Below are positions 16,811 to 41,009 of a DNA stretch of 64,000 bases, in pieces; the stretch's first letter is position 1; the number at the start of each line of letters is the position of its first letter. The DNA is from Cyanophora paradoxa CCMP329. Taxonomy: Eukaryota > Plantae > Glaucophyta. The notes under the pieces were generated by a model. It was given only the letters and a program-made list of their open reading frames with translations. It was not told the DNA's origin and searched no databases. The translations under genes were made by a program, and so were the position numbers. Location of the stretch: assembly GCA_004431415.1 (NCBI GenBank), contig QPMI01000651.1, forward strand, positions 127,153 to 191,152, written 5' to 3'.

Positions 16811-16815
16811 TCAAT

Positions 16816-17966: not shown

Positions 17967-18852
17967 CTACAAACTCCAACTGAAACGAATTATCGATACC
18001 ATTCATATCTACAAGATCACCAAAATAATCACGAAATTCAACTGTTAATTCACGAATAACAAGGTTTTTGTCTGTTATTTTTATGTATTCACCATGCTCT
18101 CCGCTATGGTAAACATACTTCCCGATGTCCTGACTCAATTGTAATCGCAAGATCGCGCCTTGATTCTGCGGTTGCGATTTCGGGACTATATTGTGGTTGG
18201 ATGCAAAAGAAGAGAGTTCTTTGATGTGCATATACAAGTATTGCTCAGCGTTCATATCCGCCATCTTTGGACTTGTTGCTTTGTGTTGCAACGGCACTGG
18301 ATCTACACCTTCAAACGTTATTCCCCATTGTGGGTGATCAGGTGTAATTGGTCTTCCTGCATAAGATAAGTAATTCTCAGGAGCGAATACAGACCTGTTA
18401 TCTTCTAAATTGTGTTGCTGGCTTACCAATAATGTTGATCCAAGACCAAGTAGTTTGGCGATTCTATTGTTTGACGCTGCTATTTCGAATGGAACGCTGC
18501 TATAAAATTCTAACTTGTATGTTGTCGGGTTGTAGTATATCTTAAAGAATGTATTTTCAAGAACTTCGTAGTTTAAACCGTAATTATATGGTTGAGTAAC
18601 TCCAAAGTGTCCTTGGTTGATGTAACCACTCGGTAACGGAAATACTTGCTGGTTAAGGATGAAACCACCAATGTTATAACGAACTATAATATAATCGGTT
18701 CCAATCGAATTATAAATGCTGTTGGGAATCTCTGCATACAAGATACGACACTGTCGCGGTCTGGTAATTGGTGTGGTTAGTGAGACCTTGTAAGCATTTT
18801 CTTTCTGTCCATCTAATCGATCTCTACTATCGACATTGACAAGCCGAATCAT
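17950..18852 (-). CDS. Minor capsid (penton-like) protein 1, element A
   Basis: N-terminal VDSRDR...L...EIPNSIYN and C-terminal LTVEFRDYFGDLVDMNGIDNSFQLEF pattern; orthologue at 42556-43488. Confidence 0.8.
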   Translation of the reverse strand: MIRLVNVDSRDRLDGQKENAYKVSLTTPITRPRQCRILYAEIPNSIYNSIGTDYIIVRYNIGGFILNQQVFPLPSGYINQGHFGVTQPYNYGLNYEVLENTFFKIYYNPTTYKLEFYSSVPFEIAASNNRIAKLLGLGSTLLVSQQHNLEDNRSVFAPENYLSYAGRPITPDHPQWGITFEGVDPVPLQHKATSPKMADMNAEQYLYMHIKELSSFASNHNIVPKSQPQNQGAILRLQLSQDIGKYVYHSGEHGEYIKITDKNLVIRELTVEFRDYFGDLVDMNGIDNSFQLEFVAIGND

Positions 18853-18880
18853 TTTATTATATGGTTATAGATAAAAGAAG

Positions 18881-19884
18881 ATGCCTGTGGAATACGTTGA
18901 AGTGTCTTCCTTCAAAACGCTACCTAATCTGGATGCTCCAACATCACGATTTGTTGCGGATCTCCCAAAGACGTATGAGAATGTAAGAGCGGTTCGCCTT
19001 GTCTCCGCTGAATTCTATAACTCCATCCCACTCATTAGCGGTGAGACAGAACCTGGTGATGCAACAGTTGAGGATGCTTTATTATCAATTTCAGCCAAAA
19101 ATCCACATCCACCGGTGCAAATGCTCCTGAGATTCTATATGATAGTTGGCGTTCTATTCGACCTGGTGCAGGTCTAAAAACCCCAATCAATACTCATCAA
19201 CAACTCGTTGCCCGAATCAATAACCGTTTTGAGAATCTCTCGCCTCCTTCTGCAATTCGCTGTGGTTGGGATGTAGCCCAAAAAAAAGTTATCTTTTATG
19301 CTCCTGTGGAGTTCTATATATGCTTCTCATATGCAAAAGATCCTTCTGTTTCTGCAATCGAAAAAGCGCTACGACACGCTCGAATCTTGGGTTTGGATGC
19401 TGGACGCTGGGGAAACAAGTTTATTAAATCACAGACCTATGGAACAGATACAAGCTCCGTTTTTACAGGTGCAAATGTAAATGGTATTATCTCGACATTC
19501 CCAACTGAAACCTGTAAAGATAATGTCTTTTTCGTGAGAGTAAAAGAACTGGGTGACCTCGTCCAATGTGCCGATGGTCTCCTTACTGGATACTTCCATA
19601 AACTCACGGTTCAAGATAAAGACTTTGCGGAACACGTTGTTTACAATTCGACGGAAGCAAATCCGCTGTATAAATATTATAATAAGAAACTATCACTATC
19701 GCAATTATCGGTAGATGTTGTGAATGCTCAAAATGAATTAATTGATTTCGAGGGGCAACCTGTGCATCTGACATTCGAGATCCGCTATGGTGATGAACCT
19801 GCCGGCGATCCGATTTATGAGTATTTCAAAATGAGAATGAGAGAAACCCACCCCTTCTATCCAAATATTGCGGGATTCGCGTAA
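18881..19884 (+). CDS. Minor capsid (penton-like) protein 2, element A (1-nt shift near 19080)
   Basis: LPKTYENVRAVRLVSAEF ... LSVDVVNAQNELIDFEGQPVHLTFEI. Adding one T to the run at 19078-19080 makes it colinear with 43518-44528. Confidence 0.78.
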
Positions 19885-19938
19885 ATTAAGGATCATTCAC
19901 AGAATTTTTATATTTTTGTATAGTAAAAGCAAAACAGA

Positions 19939-21336
19939 ATGGATGTTACCTCGACCCTTCAACGTCTTTCTCTGAAAGAGGCGCTAACAACGCCCGAGGA
20001 AGCCAAAGCGTTCTTCCTCGATAACTCGCTTATGCTTGGTCTCGAATCGAAGACGAAACCCGTTCTCGTAACTGTTAGTCCATCGACAACCTATGACAAC
20101 AACGTAGGTCAACGCGTTTCTTTCAAACTTCCCCGCTACAACTTTGTTGGTAAAATCGAACTCGCTTTCGATCTTCCCGAACTAACCGCTTTCGAAGGCG
20201 ATACCGACCTGGTGCGCAATGGTTACACCCGCCCCGTAGGTGCGCTTGTAGAGCGTCTTGAATTCTCGTATGGCTCGTATACCTACCACGTGCCGTCTGA
20301 TTTCCTGGCGATTTTCCCACTGGTCTACTATTCAGAAGATCAACTGGCAAAAAAGAAGCGCTCTATGGGAATGCTCCATGGTATTCCCGCTCACGGAACC
20401 AACCGTAAAGGTGGCGCTTTCTTCGTTGAGATTCCGGTGCCGTGGTTGAACCACTACCTACCACTTGGCGCTCTCTCGGGTGAAGCCGTTATCACTGTGT
20501 GGTTTAAGGAAGCCAACAAGGGTTACCTTGAAACTTCTTATGGTGGTCGCTCTCTTCCAGTTGTTACTGATGCTGCCGATAAATCCACCGATGATGGACT
20601 GGGAAGCGCTACCAATGTTACACTTGCTAATGTTGGTCAAAACATCACCACTGGTGAAATTACTGGGTTCGAAGTTGCTGGAACTGTTCCTCCAATGACC
20701 CATTACATCTCCATTAAGTCTCCTCGTCTCTACATGCATGCTATTAACGTTTCAGATGAACTATTTGCTACTGTTATTGAGAAGGTTAAGACCACGGGGA
20801 TGGCTATTCCCGCTCTCGATATCGGTTTCGTCGATGCAATCGGTGTTCAGGCAAAAGGTAACACTCAACCCAACCGAATCAATCTTAGCCAAATCTCCGG
20901 TCTGGTTTATGCTCTTCTTGTCTCTGTTCGCGATGCTGATGGTGTCGATACTTCCAATGGTTCTCACAGCGTCCTTAAAACGCTTGCGAATGCGAAGGAT
21001 ATCACGATGACTTGTGAGATCAATGGACAGCGTCTGTATTCCACGGAGCCAATCCCGCTACTCAAAGGAGCGGAACTCATCGCCGATGCCTTCAAATGCT
21101 CAAACATGGACAAGGAAGCAAACCGTTACGTCCTTACCGGTCTTCCATTCTGTGTTGATGGTGAGAAGGCGATTCGCAACATTGCCCAATCTGGATATGT
21201 TGACCTTACGAACTCGTCGTCATCATTCCTTACTCTGTATCTTCCTGCTAATCGCACAATTACTGTTAACGTTCGCGCTCTCATGCATTCGTTCATTATT
21301 GTCGATAAGGACGGAATTCGCCGCATTAATCTCTAA
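19939..21336 (+). CDS. Major capsid protein (double jelly-roll), element A
   Basis: 465 aa. GQRVSFKLPR..VGKIELAFDLP and VEIPVPW...LPLGAL resemble the NCLDV-type capsid N-terminal pattern. Located between pentons and ATPase. Confidence 0.82.
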   Translation: MDVTSTLQRLSLKEALTTPEEAKAFFLDNSLMLGLESKTKPVLVTVSPSTTYDNNVGQRVSFKLPRYNFVGKIELAFDLPELTAFEGDTDLVRNGYTRPVGALVERLEFSYGSYTYHVPSDFLAIFPLVYYSEDQLAKKKRSMGMLHGIPAHGTNRKGGAFFVEIPVPWLNHYLPLGALSGEAVITVWFKEANKGYLETSYGGRSLPVVTDAADKSTDDGLGSATNVTLANVGQNITTGEITGFEVAGTVPPMTHYISIKSPRLYMHAINVSDELFATVIEKVKTTGMAIPALDIGFVDAIGVQAKGNTQPNRINLSQISGLVYALLVSVRDADGVDTSNGSHSVLKTLANAKDITMTCEINGQRLYSTEPIPLLKGAELIADAFKCSNMDKEANRYVLTGLPFCVDGEKAIRNIAQSGYVDLTNSSSSFLTLYLPANRTITVNVRALMHSFIIVDKDGIRRINL

Positions 21337-21397
21337 ACCATTATCAGTAAGATTTCGTTATTTTTATCTGTCTTTATTAAGAAGAATCTACAACACC

Positions 21398-22146
21398 ATG
21401 TCTGACGTTCCCGAATTTAATGCTGCTGAGATGATAAACCCACCATTCCGTGTCTTAGCAATTGGAAATCTGCAACGGGTAAAAGCGAAGCGGTCAAGTA
21501 TTGGCTAAAACAGCTACATGATGCGAAAAAGATAGATGTGGTTCTCGTTGTAAGTGGGACGAGTTTCAATCATTTCTGGGATAAAGTAGCAACATTGCAA
21601 CTCGGTAAATGGGATGCGCCTTACATCGCTAAACTTCTCGATGAAAGACAAGAGAAAATTGAGAAAGGAGAACCCGTTAACCAATTATGTGTCGTTCTCG
21701 ATGATCTTATAGACAATGAGATAGTCGATCTAACCCGTGATAAAATTATTGGAAGTCTTTACAGCCGTGGAAGACAAACTGCGTAAGGTTTCTTCAACCA
21801 TTCGTGTCAATTCGGATTATGCAATGTTCCTAAGTGCCGCCAATCGCAAAGAACTGGAAGCCATTGAAGAAGAATACAATATCATGCGGGATAAAGACGC
21901 TTTCTATAAGATGTTTGAGGAATACGTTCACTCCTATCAGTTTCTCATTTGGAGTTCTGCGAATTATTCGGTGGAATACTATGTTGATAAAGCGGAACTC
22001 GTTAAAGAGTTTGGGTTTCCTCGGTTTCACAGAAAGCCCAAAAAGAAAGAAGACGAATTAAAACCACCCGAGAAGGAGGAAGCGCCAAAGAGATAAAGAG
22101 CGCTGTTCACACGAATAAGTTGATGCGATATAAGAGGGGATTGTAA
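21398..22146 (+). pseudogene. A32-like packaging ATPase of element A, disrupted
   Basis: Walker A G(K)SATGKS and Walker B VVLDD. Relative to 46014-46796 it has two homopolymer shifts and a deletion of about 32 nt near 21775 that removes HSKISIICITQ. Confidence 0.85.
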
Positions 22147-22174
22147 AATTATCTCTGTATGTTATAAATATACA

Positions 22175-22906
22175 ATGCCGCCGAAACGTAGAGGTGTTCC
22201 CGCTGGTGCTATGTCATATTCCGGCGGTGAAAGTCATGGATCTCTCAACACCACACCCATGAAATTCAACGGAATGAGCGAAGTGAAACCATCACAACAG
22301 GAAGAAGACCCCTTAAATGCCGCTTATGAAGAAGCGCCCGGTGATAAAGCGCCGCAAACATCCCAAAGTGAGCAATTGAACATCTCGCCGGAAGTCTCGA
22401 AGATGAAGGCGGTCGGTGAAGGCGCCCGTCGGATTATCGGTGCTGCCGATGATCGTGAACTCGGTCTCAAAGATCTTTCCCTCGCTCGCAAGGGTGAAGG
22501 TGTTTCCAAAGAATCCGACAAGGTAATTCAATCGATGGCTGGTGAAGTTACTTACAAGGTTGCGCCAACTCAAAACATCCACCGAATCCCGAAAGCGCAA
22601 TGGGATGAGATGACCGCTAAATTAAAGGATCTGGAAGCAAAATCAAGCGCTCTTGAACAGTATGTAACTGAGAAGAAGGAGCGATCGAAAATCAAGGAAA
22701 TGCTGCGCAAAGAGGTATTCCGAATGGGTATTACTGGTGTTCCTGATAAGCAGTTTATTGGTAAGAAGGAGACCCAAATTGACGAACAAGCGGTAGATGA
22801 GTTGAAGACAAAGACCCAAAAGGGAACTGTTGAACCTGGTGCTACCAAAGCGGAAGTCGACAAAGGTGTAGCTCCCACAGCATACAAGCGGAGAGTTTGG
22901 CTTTAA
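22175..22906 (+). CDS. Conserved charged protein, possible core protein
   Basis: 243 aa, highly similar to 46825-47559; basic termini (MPPKRR, KRRVWL). Confidence 0.8.
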   Translation: MPPKRRGVPAGAMSYSGGESHGSLNTTPMKFNGMSEVKPSQQEEDPLNAAYEEAPGDKAPQTSQSEQLNISPEVSKMKAVGEGARRIIGAADDRELGLKDLSLARKGEGVSKESDKVIQSMAGEVTYKVAPTQNIHRIPKAQWDEMTAKLKDLEAKSSALEQYVTEKKERSKIKEMLRKEVFRMGITGVPDKQFIGKKETQIDEQAVDELKTKTQKGTVEPGATKAEVDKGVAPTAYKRRVWL

Positions 22907-22932
22907 TTATATATTGTTTAAAGAGGGAATCA

Positions 22933-23151
22933 ATGGAGTTTCTGAAAAAGATCATTGAGATGTTTGAGATGCATTGCGTAACCGATTGTCACAATGACTG
23001 CTGCGATACGAAATTCGAAATGGATTTCTCAGATGGTGGAAGCGATGGAGGGCGAAGGCAATCACAAGATTCGATAACAACTGAGACAGTCACCGTTACA
23101 GAAACTGAGACTGTCCGTCGCCGATCGTTTGCGCAAAACGATCATAAATAA
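22933..23151 (+). CDS. Small Cys-cluster protein
   Basis: MEFLKKIIEMF..DCHNDCC, orthologous to 47582-47863. Confidence 0.7.
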   Translation: MEFLKKIIEMFEMHCVTDCHNDCCDTKFEMDFSDGGSDGGRRQSQDSITTETVTVTETETVRRRSFAQNDHK

Positions 23152-23359
23152 TATCTTTGGTTATGGTATCAAATGTCACTCGAAGAGATCTACTCCATCA
23201 TACTATCGAAACGAAGGATTTACGCTGTTAAATCTGCAATTGAAGAACGTAGACACCAACTGGCTTTGGTCAACAAAAAATGACACCATAAAATACTTAA
23301 AGACATCAGGCATAATACAGAGTGGTAAAACATTTTCTCAACTACATATAAAGGGGAAC

Positions 23360-23596
23360 ATGGCGACTGTAATTCATATAACCGAAGACATGATTAGCGT
23401 TGTCGAATTCGGCGATGAAGAAGAGGAGACCCGCGCCAATTACAAGATGAGAGATGCTCTAAGGAAGCGAACGCTCTACAACGAAGACCCCGTTTATCGG
23501 GAGTATAAGAAGGCGCAATCGCTCGCTTCATATTATCGTCGTAAGGAGCGGGAGGGAATCGAAAACAAGTCACGGGGACGTCCACGAAAGTATTGA
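23360..23596 (+). CDS. Small AT-hook protein
   Basis: DPVYREYKKAQSLASYYRRK...RGRPRKY; orthologue at 47847-48092. The ATG at 23360 is preferred over the ORF-track start. Confidence 0.75.
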   Translation: MATVIHITEDMISVVEFGDEEEETRANYKMRDALRKRTLYNEDPVYREYKKAQSLASYYRRKEREGIENKSRGRPRKY

Positions 23597-23802
23597 GGGA
23601 AATACCCATTTGACCGCTGAACCCAATTACTCATTTTTCGAGCGGTCTATCGATATGCTTCGATAGATCCGTAACCATCTCCCGATTGCCGTTTTTGGTA
23701 ATTGAAGAGATATCAACCACTTAAAGGTTAGCCGCCAAAAAATGACAGGAATCCGGAGAAACTCTTTTCTCCATCATAGATAAGACACCCCCGATTATCG
23801 AA

Positions 23803-26143
23803 ATGAACGCTGCCGCCAAGAAATCCCTGAAACGCCTTGTTGATTGGCTTCGTGAAGACGATGTCCTGTCTGAGAATATCGTAATACCCGTTGATCCCGA
23901 TACCAAAAAACCCCTTTTCGCCCATAAAGACGGATCGTGGACTTGGGATAAATTCGATGAAGCCCTGAAATCCGGTAAGTATGTTGCTTGGGGCATTCTC
24001 GCTCGCAATATCGTGGTTATCGACTTCGACCAAGAGGAGGATTTCACCAAATTCGAGGAGCAATTCCCGATGATTTCGGTGGTGTCAATCCTCTTGCTAA
24101 AACCAAAAAAGGATATCATGTTTACTTCTCTCGTCCTTCTGACTTCGATGCTGTGAAGATCTGGGATAAAGCGGGTGCTTTCAAAGGTTATCCTAAGATC
24201 GACTGTAAGACAATTGCGTCCACTGGAACTGCTGGGTTGATCAACGTTTCCCCAAGCCCCGGTAAAACTTGGATCAGAGAACCATGGGCGGAAGGCTGTG
24301 AGTTGATCGAACCGAGTGCTGAACTCCAAAAGTGGATGATTGACAACTACCTTTTTCCGAAAGGCGGACACTCTTCTATTGATAGGAGCATTGAAGAGGA
24401 TTTGCAGAAACACATTCTCCGGAAACTTGAAGAATTTGGTTTCATCTTACCCACAATCATTAATGAGACCGAGAAGGGTTACAGTTTCACTGCTGAGAAC
24501 AAAGGTCTGATTTGTCCCTGCTGCAAGGGAAGCCATGACTCCAACAATTGGTATATACTTCAAGGGAACGAGAAAGACAAGTATATTGTTTCAAGTTATA
24601 GCACCAATTGCAAGAAGCGAGTTATGACGGTTCGCGTTCAAGCTGATACCGATGTTCAGATTGAAAAGCTAATTGATCGGTCGATTGGATCTGATGGCGG
24701 ACATTATGATGTTGCCCAGGTTGCTTTTCTTGTTCTGCGAGACAGCTACAAGTATTCAAACAAGACGTGGTTCAAGTTCAACGAGGCTTACGGAATCTGG
24801 GAGATGGATGAGACCGGGAAACGAATCTATCTGTGTTTGAGTTGCAGGGTTTGCCCGGCTTATCTTCAACGTGCTGTGCAATTCGCTCAGAGAGCGCTTC
24901 GTGATGAAGAGAATCGTGCATCTTTGGAGGAGAGATCACAGGTTCTTCTTGGTATCGCAAAGAAACTCAAACAGACTAATTACCGAACTTCTCTTCTGTC
25001 TGATCTCACAGTTCTGATGAACGATAAGACATTCTTCGAGAGACTTGATACTGTTACCAATGTGATTGGATTCACAAATGGCGTATTTGATCTGAATTCT
25101 ATGACTTTCCGAAGGGGACTCCCAGAAGACATGATCAGTAAGACTGTTGGTTATGATTATTGCCCCGAGGTGGATTCTGTGAAAGTCACCAAGATCCTTT
25201 CCATCTACTCTGACATCATCGAAGAGGAAATTGAGCGCAATTTCGTGATGGGTTCGATCGCTTTCTCTCTGAGTGGTCGCACAGATATTCAAAAGTTCAA
25301 TTTCTGGACTGGAATTGGAGCCAATGGTAAATCTCTCGTTCAGGAGATGGTCAAGCAAACATTCGGACAGTATTTCGGAACAATCAATATGTCATATTGG
25401 ACGAAACCGAAAAGAATGCATCAGACGCTACACCTGAACTTGCGGATATTCTGGGTCGTCGCATTATCTTTTCAAATGAAGCGGAAGATGGCGACAAGCT
25501 TCAAATTAGCAAGATCAAAGAGATTACAGGTGGTAACGAGATGAAGGTTCGCGCCCTGTTCAAAGATCCTGTTACCTACATTCCTATGGGTCAAATCTTC
25601 TTATCGACGAATGAGAACCTGGGGATGAGTAAACCCGATGCTGCGATTTACCGGCGACTCTCTTACTATCGTTTCTCTTGCGTCTTCAAGCCCAACCCTC
25701 AACCTGGTGAGAAGAAAGCGGATACTTCACTTATGTCCATCATGAATGACGACGAATACAAGATGGCTCAAATGTCGATCTTCTTGGACATGTGGAAGAA
25801 ACAGGATCTTGCACAGCTGCTGATGAATCCGCCACAGTCTATCATCGATCAGGGACTGGAATACTTCAATGATAACGATAAAATCGGGGAGTGGCTCCGC
25901 AGCACTTATGAGAAGACTGGAAGCCGAAACGATTTCATTAGGAGTGAAGCTATCATTACTGGCTATCGTTCTGTTGATGATAAAACCGATGCCGCCAGTA
26001 TTGGAAAGCGAGTCCGCGAAGTCTTTAATGTGAAGTCTGAAACTGTTCGAGAAAGAGGTCAGGTGAAGCGTGGTTACTTCGGACTGAAAAAGAAGATTAT
26101 GATTGAGGACGACGATGACGACGACGTAGAGGCTCCCAACTAA
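23803..26143 (+). CDS. Prim-Pol / D5-like SF3 primase-helicase, element A (two 1-nt shifts)
   Basis: VVIDFD, TKKGYHVYF, CPCC..H zinc motif, GFTNGVFDL, GIGANGKS. Shifts in a C run (about 24068) and an A run (about 25412); colinear with 48622-50949. Confidence 0.88.
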
Positions 26144-26210
26144 TTACAACAAAACATACTATTCTTACTGATAATTCATACTTTTTTTATAACCTTACTG
26201 AAAACAGTAA

Positions 26211-26302
26211 GTGTAACAGGTGTAACAGGTAAATCCCAAACTTCGCTCCTAGGGAGGTGAAAATCCGAAAACTTTGGGATTTACCTGTTACACCCGTTAC
26301 AC
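26211..26302. promoter_or_regulatory. Iteron hairpin downstream of the primase-helicase (candidate origin)
   Basis: Near-exact reverse complement of 17000-17092, including the loop. Confidence 0.65.
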
Positions 26303-26362
26303 CGAATAAAAAATAAAAAATTGACTGGTGATTTAAAAATTGAACGTGTGTCTCAGTTGAAA

Positions 26363-26521
26363 ATGAATAGCGTCAAAATGAACCAATCGGTTGTGGAAGG
26401 TGATTTGGAAGAGGTTGCAAAGTTCATAAAGTATAATTGTGGTATCAATAACAGGCGGAAGAGAAACTATGTTACTATATATATTCCAAAGGAAACAACG
26501 GTGAGAATCATTAGAACTTAA
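26363..26521 (+). CDS. Small hypothetical protein
   Basis: Preceded by two AAAATTGA motifs; weak similarity (GD, IxYN, KRN, VxIxI) to 48180-48476. Confidence 0.5.
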   Translation: MNSVKMNQSVVEGDLEEVAKFIKYNCGINNRRKRNYVTIYIPKETTVRIIRT

Positions 26522-26563
26522 TGCGTTCAAAATCCAAAATAAAAATGTTCCTTTATAGCAAAG

Positions 26564-29500
26564 ATGCCCCGCCAAACGAACAGACTGATCAAAGAAAAGA
26601 AAAACGAAATACTTGGATTGTTAGGAACTCTCTTAGTTACAGGTGAGATCACCGAAGCGGAATACGATAGAGAAGCCGCCATCTTAGATAGACGACCGCG
26701 ATTAGGTCAACTCACTGAGATTGCAAATGACCTCTACGATCGCATGCAACGAATGGAGGAATTTATGGGTGAAGGACAGAGATTAGGAGCAATTGAACCG
26801 GATATCGAAGATGGACAAGCGATGAATCAAGCGTATTCGTGGTTGACCTATCGCGCCCGAAATGAAGTTGTCGTGGATGCTATCGAATTCCTCGAAAGAA
26901 TCGCACCAAGTCTACCGCAACGCATTAAAACCCGCTTAGAGCAACTGAGAGCCGTTAAAGTCCGTCTGACTTTCGTTTGCAAATTTACCAAAGTAGGTAA
27001 TCCGCGCATCTATATCACCAAATTCATTTACAGCGATTATTTCGTAATTACCCGATCCCGCAACATAGACACAGAAGTTCGCAAAGCGTTACAGAAAATG
27101 CAAGAGGAAATGACGCAAGTGGATAGTTACCGTTTGGAGAAGATCGAAATACTTAGAGGCATTATCATGTCTTATGCACCTGTGGGAGGATGCTATTTCG
27201 CAACTCCCGAATGGATCGCATCCAAGAAAGCGACGGTGAATGTTAAGAATATCGACGGGCAAGATTGCTTCAAGTATGCGATTTTGGCTTACCTGCATCG
27301 AAAGGACATCAATAAACACAAGAGTAACGAACCGAGCCAATACCGCCGATGGTTAAATGAACTCAATTTCGATGGTATTCAGTTTCCCGTTGCCTGTGAT
27401 GCTGAGGTAATCGATCGATTCGAAGAACTGAACCCCGAACTTTCTATTAACATTTACGGAGCCGATAACGCCAAAGAGTGTTTCTATCCTCTCCATCAAT
27501 CAAGTAACCCAAGAAGAAAGACCAAGATTAATCTTTTACTTATCGAAAACACCGAAGATGATCGGGGACACTACATTACTATCATGTCTTTTAGTCGTCT
27601 TCTGAAAACTACGTTTGATAAAGCATGTGATGGTCGCATTTACTACTGTGAAACCTGCTTGTCGCGTTTCAGAACTCAGGAGAAATTAGACATGCATGTT
27701 GAAGCGAATCGCTGCATTGATTGGAGGGAGAGCAAAGGCAAATGCCCAAAAGCGGGAAGCGTAATTGAATTCGGTCTGCAACACTTGCGTAAAACTGTGT
27801 GGCTCCCTGTGATCTGTTACGTTAAAGTCGAAGATCATTCGGTCGCTATTGATGCTCAGAGGAGTAAACGTGAGATTAAAGCGGTTTCATTGCGAGTGGT
27901 AATGGGAGACGAAGTGAGAGCATACCATTTCGAGGGAATCGATCCGCTCGGTTCTCTCTTTGTAACTCTCCAAGATATCAGACCCGAAATCGTTGAGACG
28001 CTATTTAGAAATATTCCGATGCATCCACTCACAGATGATCAGAAGGCGGAATACAAGGTTACAAAACACTGTTACATTTGCTCTCAGAGATTCACCCACG
28101 AAAACTTCCCGGTTCGAGATCATTGCCACCAATCCGGCGATTTCATCGGAAAGGCATGCCGAAACTGTAACCTCCACCGGCGAATTTCGAAGCAAACCAA
28201 AGTAGCTATCGTGGTGGATCACATGGATGAATGCGGACACGGAATATTCCGCAAGATTGCACAGCAAGACGATAAACTTCGTGTTGAGATTCTGAGCAAG
28301 AATTTCGATCAATACCTATCGCTTCAATGGGGCATGTGGAAGTTCATTGATGCTTCCCATTTCATGGATTTCCAATCTGTGGATGTGGGCGATTTAATGA
28401 GAAAGTTTGAAGCATTCCGCAAATTGGCGTTTTCTCAATATGGATTGGATCCCGCACATTATGTTAGCGCACCAGGTCTCTCTTGGGACGCTATGCTCAA
28501 ACATACGAAAGTTAAGATTGAACTTATCGATGATGTAGAGAAATACGAATTTGTTGAGAGAGCCATTAGAGGTGGATTTGCTACCATGCCCACACGATAC
28601 GCAAAGGTAGAGAATGCTGACGATCATATAGTTTTGTTGGACGCAAATAATCTTTATGGGTATGCTCTCAGCCAACCACTACCTATCGGAGATTATCGAT
28701 GGGAAGATGTCACAGAGGCACTTAAAGAGGTAGAGGGTCGAAGCGCATTTATTGAAGTTGACCTTGAATACCCCACATCGCTTGAAGAACATTATGATTT
28801 CCCACTGATTGTGAATAAAGAAGTGATCACCAATGAGATGCTTGGTGATTATCAACAGAAACTATTAGATCTGACGGGCGAAAAGATCAGCAAAGACCCC
28901 AAACTTACAGCGACATTTACACCCAAGAATAAATACGTGATTGCTCGACCTCTTCTTAATTACATCGTTAAGAAGGGTGTTGAAATCAAGAAAATAAATA
29001 AGGTTCTCTCTTTCGCTACTTCCCCATTCATGAAGTCTTACATTGGTTTGAATACTCTTCTCAGGCATGAATCTACTAACCATTTCGAAAGCGACTTCTT
29101 TAAACTCATGAACAATGCAATTTACGGTAAATGCTTGGAATCTTGCAGGGGTCGCTCAACTGTCAAGATCGCTAACAGTGAGAAACTCTGTAAGAAATAC
29201 GCAGCAAGTCCGCTTATCAAAGCGACCAATGTATTAAACGAGAATGCCGTTGCCTCTGAGATGTATTCGAAGCATGTGAACTTAGATAAACCCGTAGCAA
29301 TTGGCGCTTTCGTTTTGGATTTTGCGAAACTACATAACTATCGGTTCTTCTATGATGTAGTAAGGAAGAAGTGGGAAACCGCTAAATTACTGTTCCACGA
29401 TACCGATTCGTTCTGTCTTTTCCTGAAAACCAATAATCTGAACGAAGATATGAAAGAGATAGGTGAGTATCTCGATAGGAGCAATTACGATAAATCCCAT

Positions 29501-29845
29501 CCTCTCGTGAGTATCAAAAACCGCATGGTTCCAGGTAAATATAAAAATGAGTTCCCAAATGCAAAGATCATGGAGTATGTGGGTCTGAGATCGAAACTCT
29601 ATGCTTTCAGAACTGAGACCAACGAAAGAGTAAAGATGTCGGGGACTTCCTCGAAAGAGGTTCATTTTGATGATTTTAAGAGATGTCTGTTCGAAGGCAT
29701 CATAAAAACAGTATCAGTAACAAACAAGCGAAGGCAAGACCACAACTTATATGACTTGGAGAGCAGAAGGGTCGCTCTAAACCAACTCGATAGCAAACGG
29801 AAGATATCAGCCGACGGCATTCACAGCATTCCATTTGGTCTTTAA
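26564..29845 (+). CDS. Polinton-type protein-primed family B DNA polymerase, element A
   Basis: 1093 aa; DCF...GHY N-terminal region, RDHCH..G..CRNCNL, PGLSWDAML, RGG, DANNLYG, KLMNNAIYGK, HDTDS. Confidence 0.95.
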   Translation: MPRQTNRLIKEKKNEILGLLGTLLVTGEITEAEYDREAAILDRRPRLGQLTEIANDLYDRMQRMEEFMGEGQRLGAIEPDIEDGQAMNQAYSWLTYRARNEVVVDAIEFLERIAPSLPQRIKTRLEQLRAVKVRLTFVCKFTKVGNPRIYITKFIYSDYFVITRSRNIDTEVRKALQKMQEEMTQVDSYRLEKIEILRGIIMSYAPVGGCYFATPEWIASKKATVNVKNIDGQDCFKYAILAYLHRKDINKHKSNEPSQYRRWLNELNFDGIQFPVACDAEVIDRFEELNPELSINIYGADNAKECFYPLHQSSNPRRKTKINLLLIENTEDDRGHYITIMSFSRLLKTTFDKACDGRIYYCETCLSRFRTQEKLDMHVEANRCIDWRESKGKCPKAGSVIEFGLQHLRKTVWLPVICYVKVEDHSVAIDAQRSKREIKAVSLRVVMGDEVRAYHFEGIDPLGSLFVTLQDIRPEIVETLFRNIPMHPLTDDQKAEYKVTKHCYICSQRFTHENFPVRDHCHQSGDFIGKACRNCNLHRRISKQTKVAIVVDHMDECGHGIFRKIAQQDDKLRVEILSKNFDQYLSLQWGMWKFIDASHFMDFQSVDVGDLMRKFEAFRKLAFSQYGLDPAHYVSAPGLSWDAMLKHTKVKIELIDDVEKYEFVERAIRGGFATMPTRYAKVENADDHIVLLDANNLYGYALSQPLPIGDYRWEDVTEALKEVEGRSAFIEVDLEYPTSLEEHYDFPLIVNKEVITNEMLGDYQQKLLDLTGEKISKDPKLTATFTPKNKYVIARPLLNYIVKKGVEIKKINKVLSFATSPFMKSYIGLNTLLRHESTNHFESDFFKLMNNAIYGKCLESCRGRSTVKIANSEKLCKKYAASPLIKATNVLNENAVASEMYSKHVNLDKPVAIGAFVLDFAKLHNYRFFYDVVRKKWETAKLLFHDTDSFCLFLKTNNLNEDMKEIGEYLDRSNYDKSHPLVSIKNRMVPGKYKNEFPNAKIMEYVGLRSKLYAFRTETNERVKMSGTSSKEVHFDDFKRCLFEGIIKTVSVTNKRRQDHNLYDLESRRVALNQLDSKRKISADGIHSIPFGL

Positions 29846-30030
29846 TATACTTGCTCAATACTTCTCTTTTTATTTTTTCGATCTCCAAGTAGCAGCAAAC
29901 CACGGATCAGATGCAGCAACCATATGCACCTTAAACCGGGGTCATTTGGATCGATCGCAAAGTAGTTTGGTTTCGGGTGTTCTGTCCAAACCGGCTCGTC
30001 CATTATTAATATATTGAAAATAAAGTAAAG

Positions 30031-30956
30031 ATGCCCTCAGCACAGATAGGATTGCGACCCATTCCTAAAATCGTAAAGAAGAGCATGAAAGAAGACCAAG
30101 GGAACATGCTACCGATAACCATTCCGGTCGAAGAGAAGAACACACGAATCTTAAAGAAGTCGGAGATGGTTAAACAACTGATCCCGGAGGCATTGCCTAC
30201 TGAGACTGTAACGAAAGAATCGAAGATCGCGAAGAAGTTTTACGATCCGCGCACAGGTTACAAAGGTTTCGGGGCAATGAGAAAGGAACTACCAGAGGAA
30301 GACTACAAGAAGATGAGAGAATGGTATGATAAACAGGAAGTCGTTCAGATAAACGCACCGACCCTTTCAAGAAAGAGAGATCCGATGATTCCGATTCGGC
30401 AACCTCTCGATACCTACGTAATCGATCTGCTCTTCTTCCCAGCATACAAGAACCAAAACGACGGATACGATACGTTCATGTCCGCGATGGAATCTACCTT
30501 ACGCACGGGTTACATCATTCCGATGAGAGATAAGAGCGCTCTTACGGCGCTTGCGGCGTTTGAACAGCTACAACGAAGAGTTCCTCGACCTATCGCACGC
30601 GTTCAGAGTGACAGCGGAAGCGAGTTCACAAATAACATGTTCACGAATTACCTTGCTAAGAAGTTCATAGACCATCAGATAAGCGATGTCGCAGATCATC
30701 GAAGCCAAGGTAGAATCGAAGCGTTTAACAAGCAGATCAAACGATTGATCACGAACTATTGCATAGCAAACAACACAGCGCGATTCTTCGATGTATTGGG
30801 AGACATTGAGTATAACTATAATAATACCATCCACTCAGCAACCAAGAGAAAACCAGCAGAAACGACGGAAGATCATTACCGTGAGATTATCGGATTAGAA
30901 GATGAGAGGTTCAAGAAGTCGATTGCTTACTTGGATGGTATCAAACAGGGTATGTT
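30031..30956 (+). pseudogene. rve (DDE) integrase of element A, 5' part, interrupted by element B
   Basis: IDL, SDSGSEF, IEAFNK, YNNTIHS. Similarity to 55652-57037 stops exactly at the TATGTT TSD. Confidence 0.93.
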
Positions 30957-32029
30957 ACACATAGTAAAATGCGGAGTTTTAACCCTCGGCTTAATCTTAA
31001 TTGATTTTGTTGATATATATCGTATATTCTATTTCAATCAATCGATAATCTGTGTATATCTTATCGAATATTCATTTATTTCGATTATTTTGTATTCTTT
31101 TCGATATTTTATCGTAAATTTCTCTTATTTTCCGATTAGTCTTACTGAGTGAATCGATAATCTGTATATATTTCCGAATAATATAACTGAATCTCAATTA
31201 GATCTTGCCTCTGGTTAAAACTCCGCATTTTACTATGTGTGATTGGTCTAAAAGTTAATTGATTTAATCGATATTATATTCATGTACTTTCTCGATTAAA
31301 TTTAATTAAATTTTATTCATTTAATCGGAAACATATCGCTAAACTCGATTAAGATCCATAAAAGATTCATTTGTTTATATTAACAAATCGATCTCTTATT
31401 GAATTCAATCGTAATTATACATGAAACTTATATGATTTTATCATTGTTTTGTTGAGTCTAAGGGGGGACCCTTAGGTTTTTTGAAATAATTGGGTGTCAC
31501 AGGTGTCACAGGTCCATCCCAAACTTTTGAAAATTCATTCTTTATAGGAGAAACTTTGGGATAAACCTGTGACACCTGTGACACATACCATATTTAGTAA
31601 GGATCTCTTTTATAATGAAAAACTCAGTAATAATCTTATCTATGTATTTCTAATTAAATGAATAAATGATTTAATCGAGTGTCACAGGTGTCACAGGTCC
31701 ATCCCAAACTTTTGAAAATTCACTCTTTATAGGAGAAACTTTGGGATAAACCTGTGACACCTGTGACACATACCATATTCAGTAAGGACCTCTTATATTG
31801 TGAAAATCTCAGTGTTAGTTGGTGTAGTTGATTCAAAAAATGCATTTTATACTCTGATTCATTGTTATTTCCTGTGAAATTTGAGTCAACTCAACCCACT
31901 TAGTCAACCCTTGCATTGAATTCGTAACAAAATCCATATACTATTACTACTTTTACGATTAATATGAGTCAACCTTGAGTCCACTTTAATATAAATATTA
32001 TATAATAGGGGGAATCAAGGGGAGATGCT
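30957..32029 (+). repeat. Left TIR of element B (fold-back 30957-31240; iteron hairpins 31494-31584 and 31679-31769)
   Basis: Reverse complement of 57791-58863 with only a few mismatches seen by eye. Confidence 0.95.
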
Positions 32030-32273
32030 GAGTTTTAGTGTAAGGAAATCGAATAGTATTCGAAATCTTACACCTGAAGGTGTAGGGTGCATTCATATTT
32101 CGGCTACATCATACATTAGATTTCTACTGTAAACAATAACCGGAATCCGGAAAATAATCATTGTAGAAAGCTATTGTAGTAAAATGATATATTATGTCCT
32201 TTTGTTACAATAGCTGATCAATGTTATTGTTAGAAAACAAAGGAATCCTTTCAAAACTCATTATAGAAACCCA

Positions 32274-32672
32274 TTAAAACGGAAATCTATCATGTTTATG
32301 TCTTTCAGTCTTCTCAAATGTGAGGAAATTCATTGTTTTATCGATCTCATCAGCAACTGCTTGTGTTTTATGCTGAGCTTCTTTACCACAACTGAATATA
32401 TCAATTGCTAACATGCCTTCATTGGAATAACAATGAGCTGTGCAATGGCTTTCATCTAATAGCAGAACTAATGCAAAACCAGGAGGTGATAGTTTGCCAT
32501 CAAATATCTCACAGTGTTTATGAACAATCCTAATGCCTTGTCTTAATACTGCTTGTTCAAGGGTTCCCATAATCCAATTACCTAGGAAGCTTACATGCTC
32601 ATGTCCTGTTGCTATAGCTGATTTAGCTTTGTAATCAAGCATAACATGAAAGCCTCTGTATTTAGTCTCCAT
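32274..32672 (-). CDS. speD: Prokaryote-type pyruvoyl S-adenosylmethionine decarboxylase (SpeD/SpeH family)
   Basis: G.H...D start, PPGFALVLLLDESH autocleavage site, H.Y..G..AIDIFSCG; likely start METKY. Confidence 0.88.
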   Translation of the reverse strand: METKYRGFHVMLDYKAKSAIATGHEHVSFLGNWIMGTLEQAVLRQGIRIVHKHCEIFDGKLSPPGFALVLLLDESHCTAHCYSNEGMLAIDIFSCGKEAQHKTQAVADEIDKTMNFLTFEKTERHKHDRFPF

Positions 32673-32701
32673 TAAGAATACCTTAGAAAAATTAATTAAA
32701 C

Positions 32702-32974
32702 CTAATCGAACCGAATGCAAACATCCCTATATTCTACAGTTATTGATGAAGTAGCCCTTTTCCTATGTGCTTGACTTTTTCTTTTATTACAGTCCCTACA
32801 CCCTGATCCCTTCACATGATTAAATGGATATGTAAGGATCACCTTATTACACTGCAAACATCTAACAGATACTTTCTCTTGAGCTTTGATGTAATGTGTC
32901 TCACTGTAATCGAATTTATCTTTACCATGGACTGTCATAGCAGCATCAATAAACTTTTTTGTTTTAATATCCAT
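32702..32974 (-). CDS. DUF723-like zinc-ribbon protein
   Basis: FI..A..VHG...DYS...Y......V.V.C..C......P.NH..G.GC..C pattern. Confidence 0.7.
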   Translation of the reverse strand: MDIKTKKFIDAAMTVHGKDKFDYSETHYIKAQEKVSVRCLQCNKVILTYPFNHVKGSGCRDCNKRKSQAHRKRATSSITVEYRDVCIRFD

Positions 32975-32996
32975 ACTCTATATATAACCAATATTC

Positions 32997-33830
32997 TTAT
33001 GGAGCAGTATCCTGCCCAAAAATGGGGAAATATCGATTTGTCCCATAGTATTCAGCATAGGTATTCTGCTTTGCAATAAAATCGGTTCTCTCTGCAAACA
33101 TCACACACTTGTAGATACCAAACTTGGTGGCTCTCACTAAGAACTGATAGTCTTCCAAACCGAAATTGACTCCATGATAAGCAATTCCGAAATTATCATA
33201 TGGGGTGATCACTACTGCAAAGTTGGGAGTTCCACCTTCAACTTGGCATACAGCATAAACATCTGGTGGGATATCCACAACAACCTTGTAGTGATCACCA
33301 ATCTCAACAAGAGAGTCTACTACTGCTGTTTGTTCATTCACAACAATGGGGAATATCTTGATTATATAGGGGGCATTCATGCTGGGGACATAGGTTCGAA
33401 TTCTTGTGTTGGGATCAATGGGATTGGGTTGATCATTCACAAATAAAGGCGCTCCAACAGCCCCACCAACCCTAAGACCATCACCAATATAAGCTCCCCC
33501 CGATTTGCAGTTAATAGCTCCCGACCTAGATTCAAAAGAATAAGTAGACAGAGGATCTCCATAGCTATCTGGGTCTCCATAATGAGCAGAAAAGTTTGCA
33601 TTTGTGACAAGTAGCTTAGTTGTCTTAACTATTCCATTATTTTTATCACATCTGAGTTCCTGTAATCTCAGCTTGTGGGTGGAACCAAATGTATTCATTG
33701 TAGGTTGGACCTCTGTGGATTGGAGACCCTCAACATCATCAAAAGTAGCATGCTGCAGAACATGGTTTGCTGGTGCAGCTAATGAAAGCTGAGGTGTAAT
33801 AATTCGTTCAAGTGGGGGTTGCTCAGCCAT
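32997..33830 (-). CDS. Putative fibre/virion accessory protein (paralogue 1)
   Basis: 277 aa; shares ELR.DKN.G.VKTT.LLVTNANF and SGGA.IG.G.RV with the neighbouring gene. Confidence 0.7.
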   Translation of the reverse strand: MAEQPPLERIITPQLSLAAPANHVLQHATFDDVEGLQSTEVQPTMNTFGSTHKLRLQELRCDKNNGIVKTTKLLVTNANFSAHYGDPDSYGDPLSTYSFESRSGAINCKSGGAYIGDGLRVGGAVGAPLFVNDQPNPIDPNTRIRTYVPSMNAPYIIKIFPIVVNEQTAVVDSLVEIGDHYKVVVDIPPDVYAVCQVEGGTPNFAVVITPYDNFGIAYHGVNFGLEDYQFLVRATKFGIYKCVMFAERTDFIAKQNTYAEYYGTNRYFPIFGQDTAP

Positions 33831-33853
33831 TTTACATTAAAGGGATATATCTT

Positions 33854-34698
33854 TTATGGGGTTGGGTCATCAATTACATCTGGCTCCATGTAAAACCCTG
33901 TAACTGAAAGAGTATCAGGAGTTACACCTCTAAGAGCTGATACAGCGGCTATATCTGTTCTCAAACCGATAAGAGTTATAGTATATAACCCAATATCTGT
34001 AACAAACAAGTCAAAGGTGAAATTATTATTATAAACACAGTAGCCATAACCGAAATGATTGTATCCCTGAACATTGAAATAGTATTTATGACCTACTTGA
34101 TTGTTGTTGGCTCTACAAAGGGAAAGCATTGCAGATGGAATCGCAAGACCTCTCAGTACTCTTTTGGTTCCTTCAATTAATTCCGAGTTTTCAAGAGTAA
34201 CAGTATATCCAATGTAAAATTGAATTAATGGCTGCTGTGCAACAGGAGTATATAATCGAATTCGTTGGGGTCTTCAACATTCTGTTCAAGAGTATCTGGG
34301 ACATCATTATACGAAATTGAGGATGAAAGCTGACCTGAAACTCTGCAACCTCCACCAATAAAAGCTCCTCCTGATCTCACAGTAACAGCAGCAGAATTCT
34401 TATCGAAATCAAGGGCTTTCAGATCAACACTGAAAGCATCTGGACCTCCATTAGTAGGTTGGAAGAAGTTTGCATTTGTGACAAGAAGTCGAGTTGTTTT
34501 CACCACACCTGAATTCTTATCAGCTCTCAGCTCTTTAACTCGAATAATCGAATTTTTATCAAAGGAGTTACCATTGGAGTTGGGTCTCTCTGTGGATTCT
34601 AAACCACGAACCTCATCATTAACTTCATGCTGGCGAAAATGCATTGCAGGGGATCCAAGGGAATATATAGGCAGTTGAACTCGATTATATTCACCCAT
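33854..34698 (-). CDS. Putative fibre/virion accessory protein (paralogue 2, shifted near 34230)
   Basis: ORF pieces 34225-34698 and 33854-34129 together align with 32997-33830. Confidence 0.65.
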
Positions 34699-34751
34699 TG
34701 CTTCTTTTACTAAGAAGTAAAGAAAAATAAACTGCAATCAAGCCAAAGTGA

Positions 34752-35042
34752 TTAAATTCGATCCAAGGATTGGTAGGCAACTGAAAGTGATTGAAGGTTG
34801 GATGTCATTGATTTGATGTTGTTATCACATTCAGTGTATTTAACAACAGGGTCACCATATGCAGATTTGGCAAGGACATTAACCAAGAGGTTTTTATACT
34901 CATTTACAACTGGTGAGAGCTTGTTAGTTTGCTGAATCGTTTTTTCAACTGTTTGTAATGCGTTTACAAGGGTGATTGTGTCAAAAGAAAGCGCAACAGG
35001 CTCAGTTGAATAGGTGGTTCCACCAAGAGGATAGGTCGCCAT
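34752..35042 (-). CDS. Small hypothetical protein
   Basis: 96-aa ORF tightly packed between co-oriented genes. Confidence 0.6.
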   Translation of the reverse strand: MATYPLGGTTYSTEPVALSFDTITLVNALQTVEKTIQQTNKLSPVVNEYKNLLVNVLAKSAYGDPVVKYTECDNNIKSMTSNLQSLSVAYQSLDRI

Positions 35043-35045
35043 TTA

Positions 35046-38000
35046 TTATACTTTGACATTTTTAATTTGGTCTATTTGATCCTGTTGATCTTTGCATTTT
35101 TGGGACAACTCCTTCACAGCTTCAATGAGAACTGGAATTAAACCTGTGTATTCAAGAGATAGGTAGCCATCGTCTTTTTTAACATTAACTACCTCTGGTA
35201 TTACCTTTTCTACATCTTGCGCAATTAAACCTAATTTCGTTCCATCTTTTTCGCTTCCAATTCGTTTAAAACTCACTCCTTCTAATTTTTCGATTGCTGA
35301 AAGAGCGCCGGATATCTTTTTAATGTCGGTTTTGTATCTTATGTCACTTCCTTGTGTTAAATAACCTCCAATCCACATCCATCCTCCATGATACATGTAA
35401 CAAATATCAGTATCTTGTTCATTTCGGAATACAAGGGAATATCTCCCCTCCTTTCAAATATGTAGAAGTTTGGTTACCGAAATGGATACGATTATATCCA
35501 TCACTGGAATTAAACCAAGTCCCCACAGTTCCTGTTAAGATATTGGGTTTGCTATAAACGTTATTCCAATGAATATAGCCGGTGTGACCGCCATAACTAT
35601 TTCCAACCCAAATTTTCATGTAACTAATACCCATAATATGAACTCTTCCAATCTTTGGTCTAATTCGAATTGTGAGGAATCGATTACCAAGATGTATTGG
35701 AACATTATTTATACCACTGTGGTTACCATCAGGAGATGTGCTGTATGGTTGATAACTATTTACTGATGTAATAAAAACTTCATTCCCTTGTCGATTCAGT
35801 CCCCAAATTTCAAAAATTCGTGAGTTAGTCCAAGGTAAATAAGTTAAAAACGCTGTTCCTTTGTGGTATCCATCAGGTATATCGAAGTCAATCCAAGCGG
35901 TAGATGTTTGATCATCCGTTTGATTATTATGAACATATGAACCATAATTATAATGTGGATCCCATGCTGAACTCCATGCCCATGTCCAACCCTCAGAACA
36001 TCTATTAAATTCAATACCTCCTACTGTTTTATCTGCTGTGTGAAACTTTGGAACAGCATTACCATTTATTTGAAGATCTGTTGTAGCATTAATAGTGGGT
36101 GCTGTAATAGTGTTTTTCACCCAAAAGTTACCATTGTTATAAGACTTTAAAATTGCTCCATCTGCTGAGTCTCTAAATTCAATTGACACACCGTCACCAT
36201 TCGGTCTCCCTCGTATATATGTGCAATCGCCATTACCAAACCAAATTCGCTCGACTGCATCTACTGATTTTAACCATGTATTTGTTGCCCATGTTGCGGT
36301 TTGTGGAAGGTCTGCGGCTGAGTAAAATGATGGTTTACTAAATACATTATCCCAAGAGATCATGCCCAATTCATTATCAGTTGCTCTCTGTCTGCTCCAC
36401 CCAAAAACACCTGTGAGATGAATGCGACCTTTTCGACCTTGGACATAAATATATTTGTAGAATTCGCAATTGATAGAGACAAACAAGATTGTATTATGTG
36501 TTCCATCCTGATTCACCTGTTGAATTCCCTGATAGGCATTTACTCGTTTTAAGAAATGTTGATATCCATTGACTGTTTGCCCATAGATATCAAAATATCT
36601 ACAATTATACCAAGGCATGTGCTGGATATAAAATGATTTCATACCTGTGGGAATGAGCCATCTCATCCAACAACCACTGCAATCTTCATCATTTTGTGGT
36701 GTGGTATGACATCCATTTTGCCCTGTTCTTGATGCCCATGTAACAGTCCAGTTATTTGGAGATCTGTCTGTTGAAATCACATCTAACTGATCAAAATCAT
36801 AACCTTTTGGAATTGTGGTTCCACCAATTTGTAGAGTGGTAGCATTCACAGTTCCATTGACAGTCCCACCTGTAAGAGGTAAATAATTCCCAAGAGCTGC
36901 TGTTAATTCGTTATCTGTTACAACATCTGTAAGAGCTAATTGTAATTCTGTATTTGTTACATAATCTTTGTTTTCTAAATAATCATCTGTAACAACACCA
37001 GAGAGGGTCTCATTGTGTAAGTTTTTTGCTGCCATCCTCTGATTGACTTCTAAGGCTCCTCCTGCTAATGTTTTAATCCAGGACATTTCGCATTTCCCAT
37101 AGTTATCTGATGGTTGTCCCACAAGTGGGACATAATTGAATTTGGATCGACTGAATATTATTTTAGGTCTGGAGCCATCAGTTGCACTGACATCTGTTAC
37201 ATTTACTTGCATAATGGCATCCTTATCATCATATGCTGCTGGATCAGATGGGAGAGGTGGTAATCCTGATGTCAATGTGATGTCCTCATTATAATAACTT
37301 GTTAAGAAGATGCCTGGTTTGGTATCAATCACCCCAACACCACCTGCTGAAATCATTTGGATTCTTGTTGGTTGTTTGATGTATAATTCACCTTCCATTG
37401 TGGTCCCTGCATCAATGCCTTTTCGATTGACATAATAATCATTTAGTTGTAGCCTTTCAGGTATGGTATTACTCTGGTAGAGACTCACACCATTTGTAAA
37501 GTCTGTCAAAATATTGCCTGATGATGCAAAAGTTGGTTGTTCATCTATTTGACTCCAAGGGTGTCTGTGGTTGCTATTGGTTATTGTTGAGTAATCATGA
37601 GTGTGTGAATCAGGTGGGAAGGTTAATGGAGGATTTGTGATATGCTCCCATAAATGAGTATGGGCGAAATCTGTGATCTGATCTTTGGTGTGAGTATGGG
37701 CAAAATCTGTGATCTGATCTTTGGTGTGAGTATGGGCGAAATCTGTGATCTGATCTTTGGTGTGAGTATGGGCAAAATCTGTGATCTGATCTTTGGTGTG
37801 AGTATGGGCGAAATCTGTGATCTGATCTTTTGTGTGAGTATGGGCGAAATCTGTTATTTGGTCTTTTGTGTGAGTATGGGCGAAATCTGTTATTTGGTCT
37901 TTTGTGTGAGTATGGGCGAAATCTGTTATTTGGTCTTTTGTGTGAGTATGGGCAAAATCTGTAATCTGGGCTTTTGTGTGAGTGTGATTTTGAATCCAAC

Positions 38001-40966: not shown

Positions 40967-41009
40967 GGCTTTTACTATATGGATTTATAAAATTCCTGAT
41001 AAGTAAAAG

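Follow-up and report, generated by a model that had tools for sequence, protein, structure and literature searches.

Nested Polintons of Cyanophora paradoxa encode protein-primed polymerases with a very probably inactive, apparently folded exonuclease domain and carry a separate primase-helicase

Two related Polinton-type elements in the genome of Cyanophora paradoxa, one nested within the other, encode protein-primed DNA polymerases of family B (pPolBs) whose proofreading exonuclease has lost catalytic residues and an internal segment and is, with high confidence, dead. The remainder of the domain is predicted to persist as a folded pseudo-exonuclease, and each element also carries an AEP-SF3 primase-helicase, which has likely taken over the opening of DNA ahead of the polymerase.

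Both elements lie in the window, the whole stretch of 64,000 nucleotides that was analyzed, in which eukaryotic host sequence of 62-70% GC encloses a low-GC insertion (16031..61400, +) composed of element A on the outside and element B on the inside, the right end of A being approximate. The host portion includes a LINE-like retrotransposon (1246-8770, -) with an endonuclease, a reverse transcriptase, and a long ORF upstream. Element B (30957-58863) is inserted within the rve integrase gene of A, the 5' part of which occupies 30031..30956 (+) and which resumes at 58865-59317. The left TIR of B (30957..32029, +; 1073 nt) matches its right TIR (57791..58863, -) at 100%, and a 6-bp target duplication, TATGTT, is present at 30951-30956 and 58864-58869; given the identical TIRs and the intact duplication, the insertion of B must be recent. 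Only the left end of A was recognized, and its right TIR was not found within the window. Each element possesses a capsid, an ATPase, an rve integrase, a pPolB, and an AEP-SF3 primase-helicase gene, and their Polinton/Maverick identity is indicated by the pPolB and integrase, the TIRs and target duplication (in B), and the capsid and A32-type ATPase. The integrases (that of B at 55652..57037, +) matched the rve family with E values of 1.5e-4 and 2.5e-4, which fall short of the curated cut-off, and a D-D-E triad is legible in the sequence. The major capsid protein of A (19939..21336, +) was recognized as a double jelly roll from language-model features (Atlas features score 0.98, a lead-level test in which recognition lay under the tool's threshold); the capsid protein had no Pfam match, and its only relative found was a Cyanophora paradoxa gene model at 57% identity. 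Its counterpart in B (44582-45948) is broken in the window. The A32-type packaging ATPase of B (46014..46796, +) matched Pox_A32 at E 2e-11, and that of A (about 21400-22140) is in pieces in the window; no Pfam match to an adenain-type maturation protease was obtained among the 32 ORFs scanned.

Several further genes and repeats accompany this set. Directly inside the left TIR of B lies an S-adenosylmethionine decarboxylase-like gene (32274-32672, -; PF02675, E 3e-11), a polyamine-pathway gene carried by a Polinton-type element, followed by a long region resembling phage tail fibers (32997-40966, -) with 36-nt repeats and an S74 chaperone domain, which in this assembly is divided among several ORFs. 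B also encodes a fusion of a patatin phospholipase with an F5/8 type C domain (41010-42566, +), of which a 5'-truncated copy with 71% identity is found at the right end of A (59906-60892, -). That end of A additionally contains tandem repeats of 107 nt that are palindromic and an array of 21-nt repeats (60978-61328 and 59456-59698).

The pPolB of A (26564..29845, +; 1093 aa) comprises a terminal-protein region, a vOTU protease, a pseudo-exonuclease with an HNH/EndoVII insert, and a polymerase domain, and that of B (52404..55648, +; frame broken near 55227 in the window) shares this layout at 63% identity. The A protein yielded no Pfam match and 0 matches in a PDB sequence search, and PF03175 matched B weakly. 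All polymerase motifs are kept in A (PolA D693, PolB K847, PolC DTDS at 946-949, and KxY K1011/Y1013) and coincide with near-invariant columns of 119 relatives, TPR1 and TPR2 are of normal length with no gaps relative to these proteins, and the polymerase domain, TPR2 included, is conserved and under purifying selection. The vOTU residues C235 and H336 are likewise retained (among relatives without a gap at these positions, 89 of 90 have C and 98 of 98 have H), and the N-terminal region is assigned to the terminal protein by its position and alignment. The A protein ends at the thumb (aa 1093), and a fused helicase domain was not found in it. The HNH/EndoVII (beta-beta-alpha-Me) insert in the exonuclease domain of A (28070..28171, +) keeps DHxH and CxxC..CxxCN; PF02945 matched the B protein with an E of 4e-4, which does not reach the curated cut-off, and the fold of the insert resembles that of Hpy99I (Z 6.5, rmsd 2.0, 57 aligned). 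As this insert is also found in exonuclease-intact relatives, it is not a replacement that was gained together with the loss of the exonuclease.

The pseudo-exonuclease domain extends over 27773..28513 (+; aa 404-650) in A, with a deletion junction at about 28364-28375, and over 53616..54359 (+) in B, where alignment places the same junction. The motifs of the original prediction were recovered where it had placed them, with YVKVE at 27818-27832, DHMDECG at 28217-28237, FIDASHF at 28343-28363, and SVDV at 28376-28387 in A, and YCKIE at 53661-53675, DQMDDCG at 54060-54080, FIDASNF at 54186-54206, and AADV at 54219-54230 in B, and the profile alignment against relatives that it had proposed showed the losses and the deletion in both elements. 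The ExoI motif of the relatives, YADFE, reads YVKVE in A and YCKIE in B, and ExoII, HNxxxYD, reads DHMDECG and DQMDDCG, such that in A the ExoI Asp is replaced by Lys and the ExoII Asn and Asp by His and Gly; in both elements the ExoIII Tyr has become Phe. The claim that the catalytic residues are replaced is thus sound for the ExoI and ExoII aspartates and fails for the ExoI Glu, which is kept as E423, and for the ExoIII Asp, in whose register, counted back from LDPxHY, stands D607. Two of the four carboxylates accordingly remain in A and B, and additional acids lie nearby (D552, D555, E/D556, and D610). The loop after ExoI is about 11 aa shorter in A, and the deletion, of about 95 residues between FxDS and ExoIII in both elements, has removed SLxxL and KGxxPY along with the first part of the ExoIII helix, so that FxDS nearly abuts what is left of that helix. 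The predicted absence of an intervening segment is borne out by the span from FxDS to LDPxHY, which is 34 aa in A, B, and P0001 (a Logan protein with 45% identity) and 120-209 (median 128) in the 117 measurable of 119 other matches.

These losses stand out against the conservation of the same positions elsewhere. At the ExoI Asp position, 16 of 119 relatives are gapped and the remaining 103 all have D, where A, B, and P0001 have K, K, and Q, respectively. In a wider alignment of 357 proteins of at least 600 aa, near-duplicates included (19 exonuclease-dead and 338 other), all four acids are kept in 305 of the 312 other proteins that cover the domain, in which the span is 96-209 with a median of 130, and the ExoI Asp is missing in 19 of 19 exonuclease-dead entries; the ExoII Asp is D in 336 of the 338 others and the KGxxPY Lys is present in 337.

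The domain had been described as dismantled, which overstates the case, for structure prediction gives a phi29-type exonuclease scaffold in which the fold is kept. The model of the full A pPolB (mean pLDDT 85.9) has phi29 polymerase as its best match, including all nine best PDB matches (E 3e-16). When the pseudo-exonuclease domain was modeled in isolation (pLDDT 95.8) and compared with 48,161 chains by VIA-align, the phi29 exonuclease domain (chain 5-204) ranked first with Z 10.1 and 151 aligned at rmsd 3.0, followed by other DEDD exonucleases, although a Foldseek search with the isolated domain gave no match at E 0.001. What remains, a core of about 175 aa plus the HNH insert, is therefore modeled with a DEDD/RNase H-type fold and predicted to be a folded pseudo-exonuclease; the alignments used for folding consisted mostly of intact relatives and may favor the ancestral fold.

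Relatives were sought by a profile search of 1.84 billion representatives, in which a short span combined with lost acids was encountered in P0001 and, among 149 other listed proteins, in P0233 only. P0001 has the same junction as A and B and none of the four acids, with Asn at the D607 position and no extra acids at 552, 555, or 556 (the D610 position is acidic in all three), and the three proteins form a clade with 100/100 support in a tree built from polymerase columns only. A search with P0233 produced five more clusters at 57-72% identity, resulting in a second exonuclease-dead group of six 90% clusters (P0233 and P0278-P0282) from metagenomes, on contigs of up to 19 kb, whose members have spans of 46-63 and retain the SLxxL helix but have none of the ExoI Asp, ExoII Asn/Asp, KGxxPY, or ExoIII Tyr/Asp. 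Because its breakpoints differ from those of A, B, and P0001 and because it is sister (100/99) to the exonuclease-intact proteins P0283 and P0286, the second group is probably independent in origin. All exonuclease-dead rows were joined in 0 of 200 bootstrap trees (40 rows chosen from the matches), and a single origin was not rejected by the AU test (p 0.449 with 4 rows and p 0.15 with 9 rows), although the unconstrained tree separates them. Two further changes are common to both groups: the thumb Lys before a conserved Gly, which is K in 313 of 338 others, is altered, and a His of the HNH zinc site is Cys, as it is in 47 of 338 others. In a polymerase-domain tree of 68 rows, the four exonuclease-dead rows have the four longest paths (1.98-2.03; median of the others 1.49), and, measured from the node at which the second group and its intact sisters meet, tips of the group lie at 0.76-1.01 and the sisters at 0.56; such long branches would fit either a higher mutation rate or relaxed constraint. 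No useful DNA context for P0001 or the second group was obtained from the viral contigs, prokaryote genomes, or phages searched, and none of 20 loci in a metagenome scan had a short span where it was measurable. On one contig, that of loci L006 and L012, an HNH-type Polinton pPolB is found together with the capsid gene of a Sputnik-type virophage.

Other proteins with damaged exonuclease regions were set aside. P0330 and P0334 have lost exonuclease acids together with the PolC motif and are regarded as decaying, which distinguishes them from A and B; the sponge gene model P0140 (span 67, ExoI missing) probably contains a gene-calling gap, and the insect gene models P0322 and P0321 (spans 96 and 106) retain the acids or contain gene-model gaps.

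Could the deletion itself reflect decay or misassembly? The window does contain several single-base breaks (in the pPolB of B, the helicase of A, the capsid gene of B, and the ATPase of A), which is what such an explanation would draw upon, yet those near 55227 in the B pPolB and near 24068 and 25409 in the A helicase are not shown by independent contigs and are therefore likely errors of this assembly. Neither for A, among the entries listed, nor for B did independent contigs contain an insertion or joint at the deletion junction, and the deletion is thus not an assembly artifact. In 20 of 24 listed runs, all from one organism, at least half of the words sampled from the A pPolB gene were present, and no RNA run was listed among those containing the gene; separately, the pPolB genes of A and B are overlapped by a small number of contigs of low depth, whose source runs are RNA by conjecture. 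Further against decay, the junction is in frame and common to three proteins at 45-63% identity, and the TIRs of B are identical with an intact target duplication. Although synonymous sites between A and B are saturated (pS 0.79-0.84), pN is 0.28 in the exonuclease remnant and 0.235 in the polymerase domain (pN/pS 0.33 versus 0.30), a pattern which shows the remnant to be under purifying selection like the polymerase domain. Decay or artifact is consequently given almost no credence, and the original view of an ancestral, tolerated loss is upheld by the purifying selection, by the junction shared with P0001 despite 45% identity, and by the fully supported clade. It is also very improbable that a rebuilt metal site still allows the domain to cut DNA or that the HNH nuclease removes mismatches in its place. 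E423 and D607 are indeed kept in A and B with extra acids near ExoII, and the HNH residues are kept with 70% identity between the two; nevertheless, the ExoI Asp, which bridges the two metals, has given way to Lys or Gln, nothing remains of the Kx2h Lys, SLxxL, or the ExoIII Tyr, P0001 has none of the four acids and none of the extras at 552/555/556, and the HNH insert is equally present in intact relatives. A metal site rebuilt from E423, D555, D607, or D610 is likewise unlikely. In the model, the ExoIII helix begins directly after D607, a placement that fits a helix cap rather than a ligand.

The second half of the argument concerns the primase-helicase, which is encoded at 23803..26143 (+; three pieces in the window) in A and at 48622..50949 (-) in B, where the 775-aa frame is open and carries Prim-Pol, D5_N, and DUF5906 domains. 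The B protein scores above the cut-off of the P4-family primase C-terminal model, and its DxD, GxH, and Walker A/B motifs read intact. The two primase-helicases are 54-60% identical, a divergence that matches that of the pPolBs and thereby indicates that both genes were inherited together; the place and orientation of the helicase gene nonetheless differ, the gene being inverted in B relative to A. Only one weak locus with primase-helicase relatives was found in viral contigs. Thirteen partial loci with a related pPolB, whose exonuclease motifs are intact wherever they can be read, served as controls, and none of their 76 ORFs (four pPolB frames excluded) matched a primase or SF3 helicase family.

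A palindrome of about 90 bp links this gene to the element ends. Eight copies are present in two element-specific versions, with two copies near each recognized end and 15 matches against 0.02 expected. The A-type, with two TGTTACAC-type repeats per arm, is found just 3' of the A primase-helicase gene (about 26211..26303) and twice at the left end of A (16837-16927 and 17000-17091, the second being 95% identical to the copy at 26211), and two of the copies flank the capsid-to-helicase block of A in inverted orientation. The B-type, built on TGTGACAC-type repeats, occurs in the left TIR (31494-31584 and 31679-31769), in the right TIR (58051-58141 and 58236-58326), and, in degenerate form, just 3' of the B primase-helicase gene (48469..48565). 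The palindrome is absent from 30 of 30 loci compared. The pairing of an element-specific palindrome at the ends with one behind the helicase gene suggests that the helicase acts at the ends of its own element. Repeats of this kind serve as origins for P4-type primase-helicases, a parallel not encountered in the papers searched, and by analogy these copies are regarded as putative helicase origins.

How these parts might function together can be proposed from the phi29 polymerase, in which the exonuclease site consists of four carboxylates together with the Tyr of ExoIII and the Lys of Kx2hxA (PMC4974454) and in which the template strand runs through a tunnel built from the exonuclease domain and TPR2 (PMC6351526). 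The phi29 mutant D12A/D66A, which lacks exonuclease activity, is also described as defective in strand displacement (PMC6351526), and its two aspartates are the same two that are lost in A and B. The pPolBs of A and B would still polymerize and still be protein-primed without proofreading, and the dead domain would have been retained because it is needed, with TPR2, as a wall of the template tunnel. Since loss of the two aspartates impairs strand displacement in phi29, a helicase would become necessary: the AEP-SF3 enzyme, loaded at the palindromes near the element ends, would likely open the DNA ahead of the polymerase, and its unwinding would have made the loss of the exonuclease tolerable. 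Elements that replicate in this manner would likely mutate faster. We favor this mechanism, helicase take-over included, with modest confidence, the helicase link resting on two related elements. The broader generalization is more tentative and, in our estimate, has the odds somewhat against it: that the conversion of the proofreading domain into a tunnel wall has recurred among Polintons while strand separation passed to a primase-helicase loading at palindromes of its own within the terminal repeats, yielding in a mutator virus a hybrid replisome of protein-primed polymerase and primase-helicase fork, and a living intermediate between pPolB replication and mavirus-type and AEP-SF3-only replication, at least two times in the HNH-type lineage.

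The principal competitor to the helicase take-over accepts that the exonuclease is dead and instead treats the primase-helicase as an unrelated passenger or second replicon, with the pPolB displacing strands alone through TPR2 and tolerating errors on a genome of about 25 kb. The normal length of TPR1 and TPR2, the differing place and orientation of the helicase gene, and the observation of the pairing in two related elements, with no DNA context obtained for the second exonuclease-dead group, are all compatible with a passenger, as is a report that AEP-SF3 genes are mobile and repeat-bracketed in related elements (10.64898/2026.10.13.758929). Parallel divergence of helicase and pPolB, an element-specific palindrome built into the termini, and the pairing of exonuclease loss with a helicase published for mavirus and PLVs (PMC11161782) speak against it, leaving a passenger a realistic but clearly less likely explanation. 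A different possibility is that the AEP-SF3 enzyme has become the main replicase, that the role left to the pPolB is mainly protein priming at the ends or the making of integration-ready termini, and that proofreading has consequently ceased to matter. The AEP-SF3 enzyme has been described as the sole replicase of many PLVs (PMC11161782; 10.64898/2026.10.13.758929). The thumb Lys, moreover, is changed in every exonuclease-dead protein that reaches it, which could weaken the grip on the primer; yet the whole polymerase domain, including TPR2, is conserved under purifying selection. AEPs are also usually short-patch enzymes, and a main-replicase role is thus considered improbable.

The take-over reading bears upon a wider pattern. 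Loss of the exonuclease with gain of a helicase has been reported for mavirus and for the pPolB-S1H of PLVs, where it was read as compensation for fidelity (PMC11161782), a reading repeated in PMC13215967 and PMC12721341; the coupling as presented by Krupovic et al. (2024) derives from two highly derived lineages in which the domain is mostly gone. A and B would catch the loss early, in a common type of Polinton polymerase with close intact relatives as controls (P0283 and P0286 could serve likewise for the second exonuclease-dead group), so that the coupling becomes testable, and they suggest as its cause lost strand displacement rather than fidelity compensation. The two proteins are predicted to be natural exonuclease-minus, phi29-like polymerases, and the loss is a candidate explanation for why copies of this element family in its host are highly diverse. 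QPMI01 is given as a Cyanophora prefix in PMC8502044, Cyanophora elements are mentioned there and in PMC12220804, and the contig EVE_QPMI01_83 is presented as a case in an account of AEP genes as independently mobile in multi-replicase elements (10.64898/2026.10.13.758929); the word "exonuclease" is absent from the main text of these three sources and of PMC10120064. The literature search found no paper on an exonuclease-dead HNH-type Polinton polymerase, and alignments in supplements or figures could already contain these proteins.

Among known systems, A and B resemble the HNH/EndoVII-bearing, adintovirus-like Polintons, with which they share the TP-vOTU-exo(HNH)-palm layout, all polymerase motifs, TPR1 and TPR2, and a linked rve integrase, capsid, ATPase, TIRs, and 6-bp target duplication, the A pPolB being 30-38% identical to intact members. 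They differ in their broken Exo motifs and some 95 missing residues, whereas a survey of about 22,000 integrase-linked Polinton pPolBs describes the exonuclease motifs as conserved in all taxon groups (10.1101/2023.08.22.554363). The mavirus-type pPolB (TP-vOTU-palm) is likewise a protein-primed PolB lacking a working exonuclease and accompanied by an rve integrase and a separate SF3 helicase, but mavirus keeps only a remnant of the domain (PMC11161782) where A and B keep the core fold and the HNH insert, and the helicase of A and B carries an AEP primase; most of the domain is still present in A and B, and mavirus was only a weak fold match for the A pPolB (10% identity, rank 43). The Tlr1-like pPolB-S1H of PLVs and transpovirons has similarly lost exonuclease function and gained a helicase, yet that protein has no such domain and carries a fused SF1 helicase (PMC11161782); in A no SF1 helicase is fused to the palm, and A and B combine a kept, dead domain with a separate SF3 helicase. 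Like phi29 D12A/D66A, A and B still have the domain but not its ExoI and ExoII aspartates, although the former is an engineered phage point mutant and the loss in A and B is natural, old, and joined by a deletion (PMC6351526). Chains of Pol alpha appeared among the fold matches of the isolated domain. Eukaryotic Pol alpha is a family B enzyme with a folded, inactive exonuclease domain that works beside a primase and a helicase; as it is RNA-primed, cellular, and devoid of a terminal protein, the resemblance is an analogy only. In summary, the polymerases of A and B constitute a new, earlier-stage instance of exonuclease loss accompanied by a helicase, in an otherwise standard HNH-bearing Polinton polymerase.
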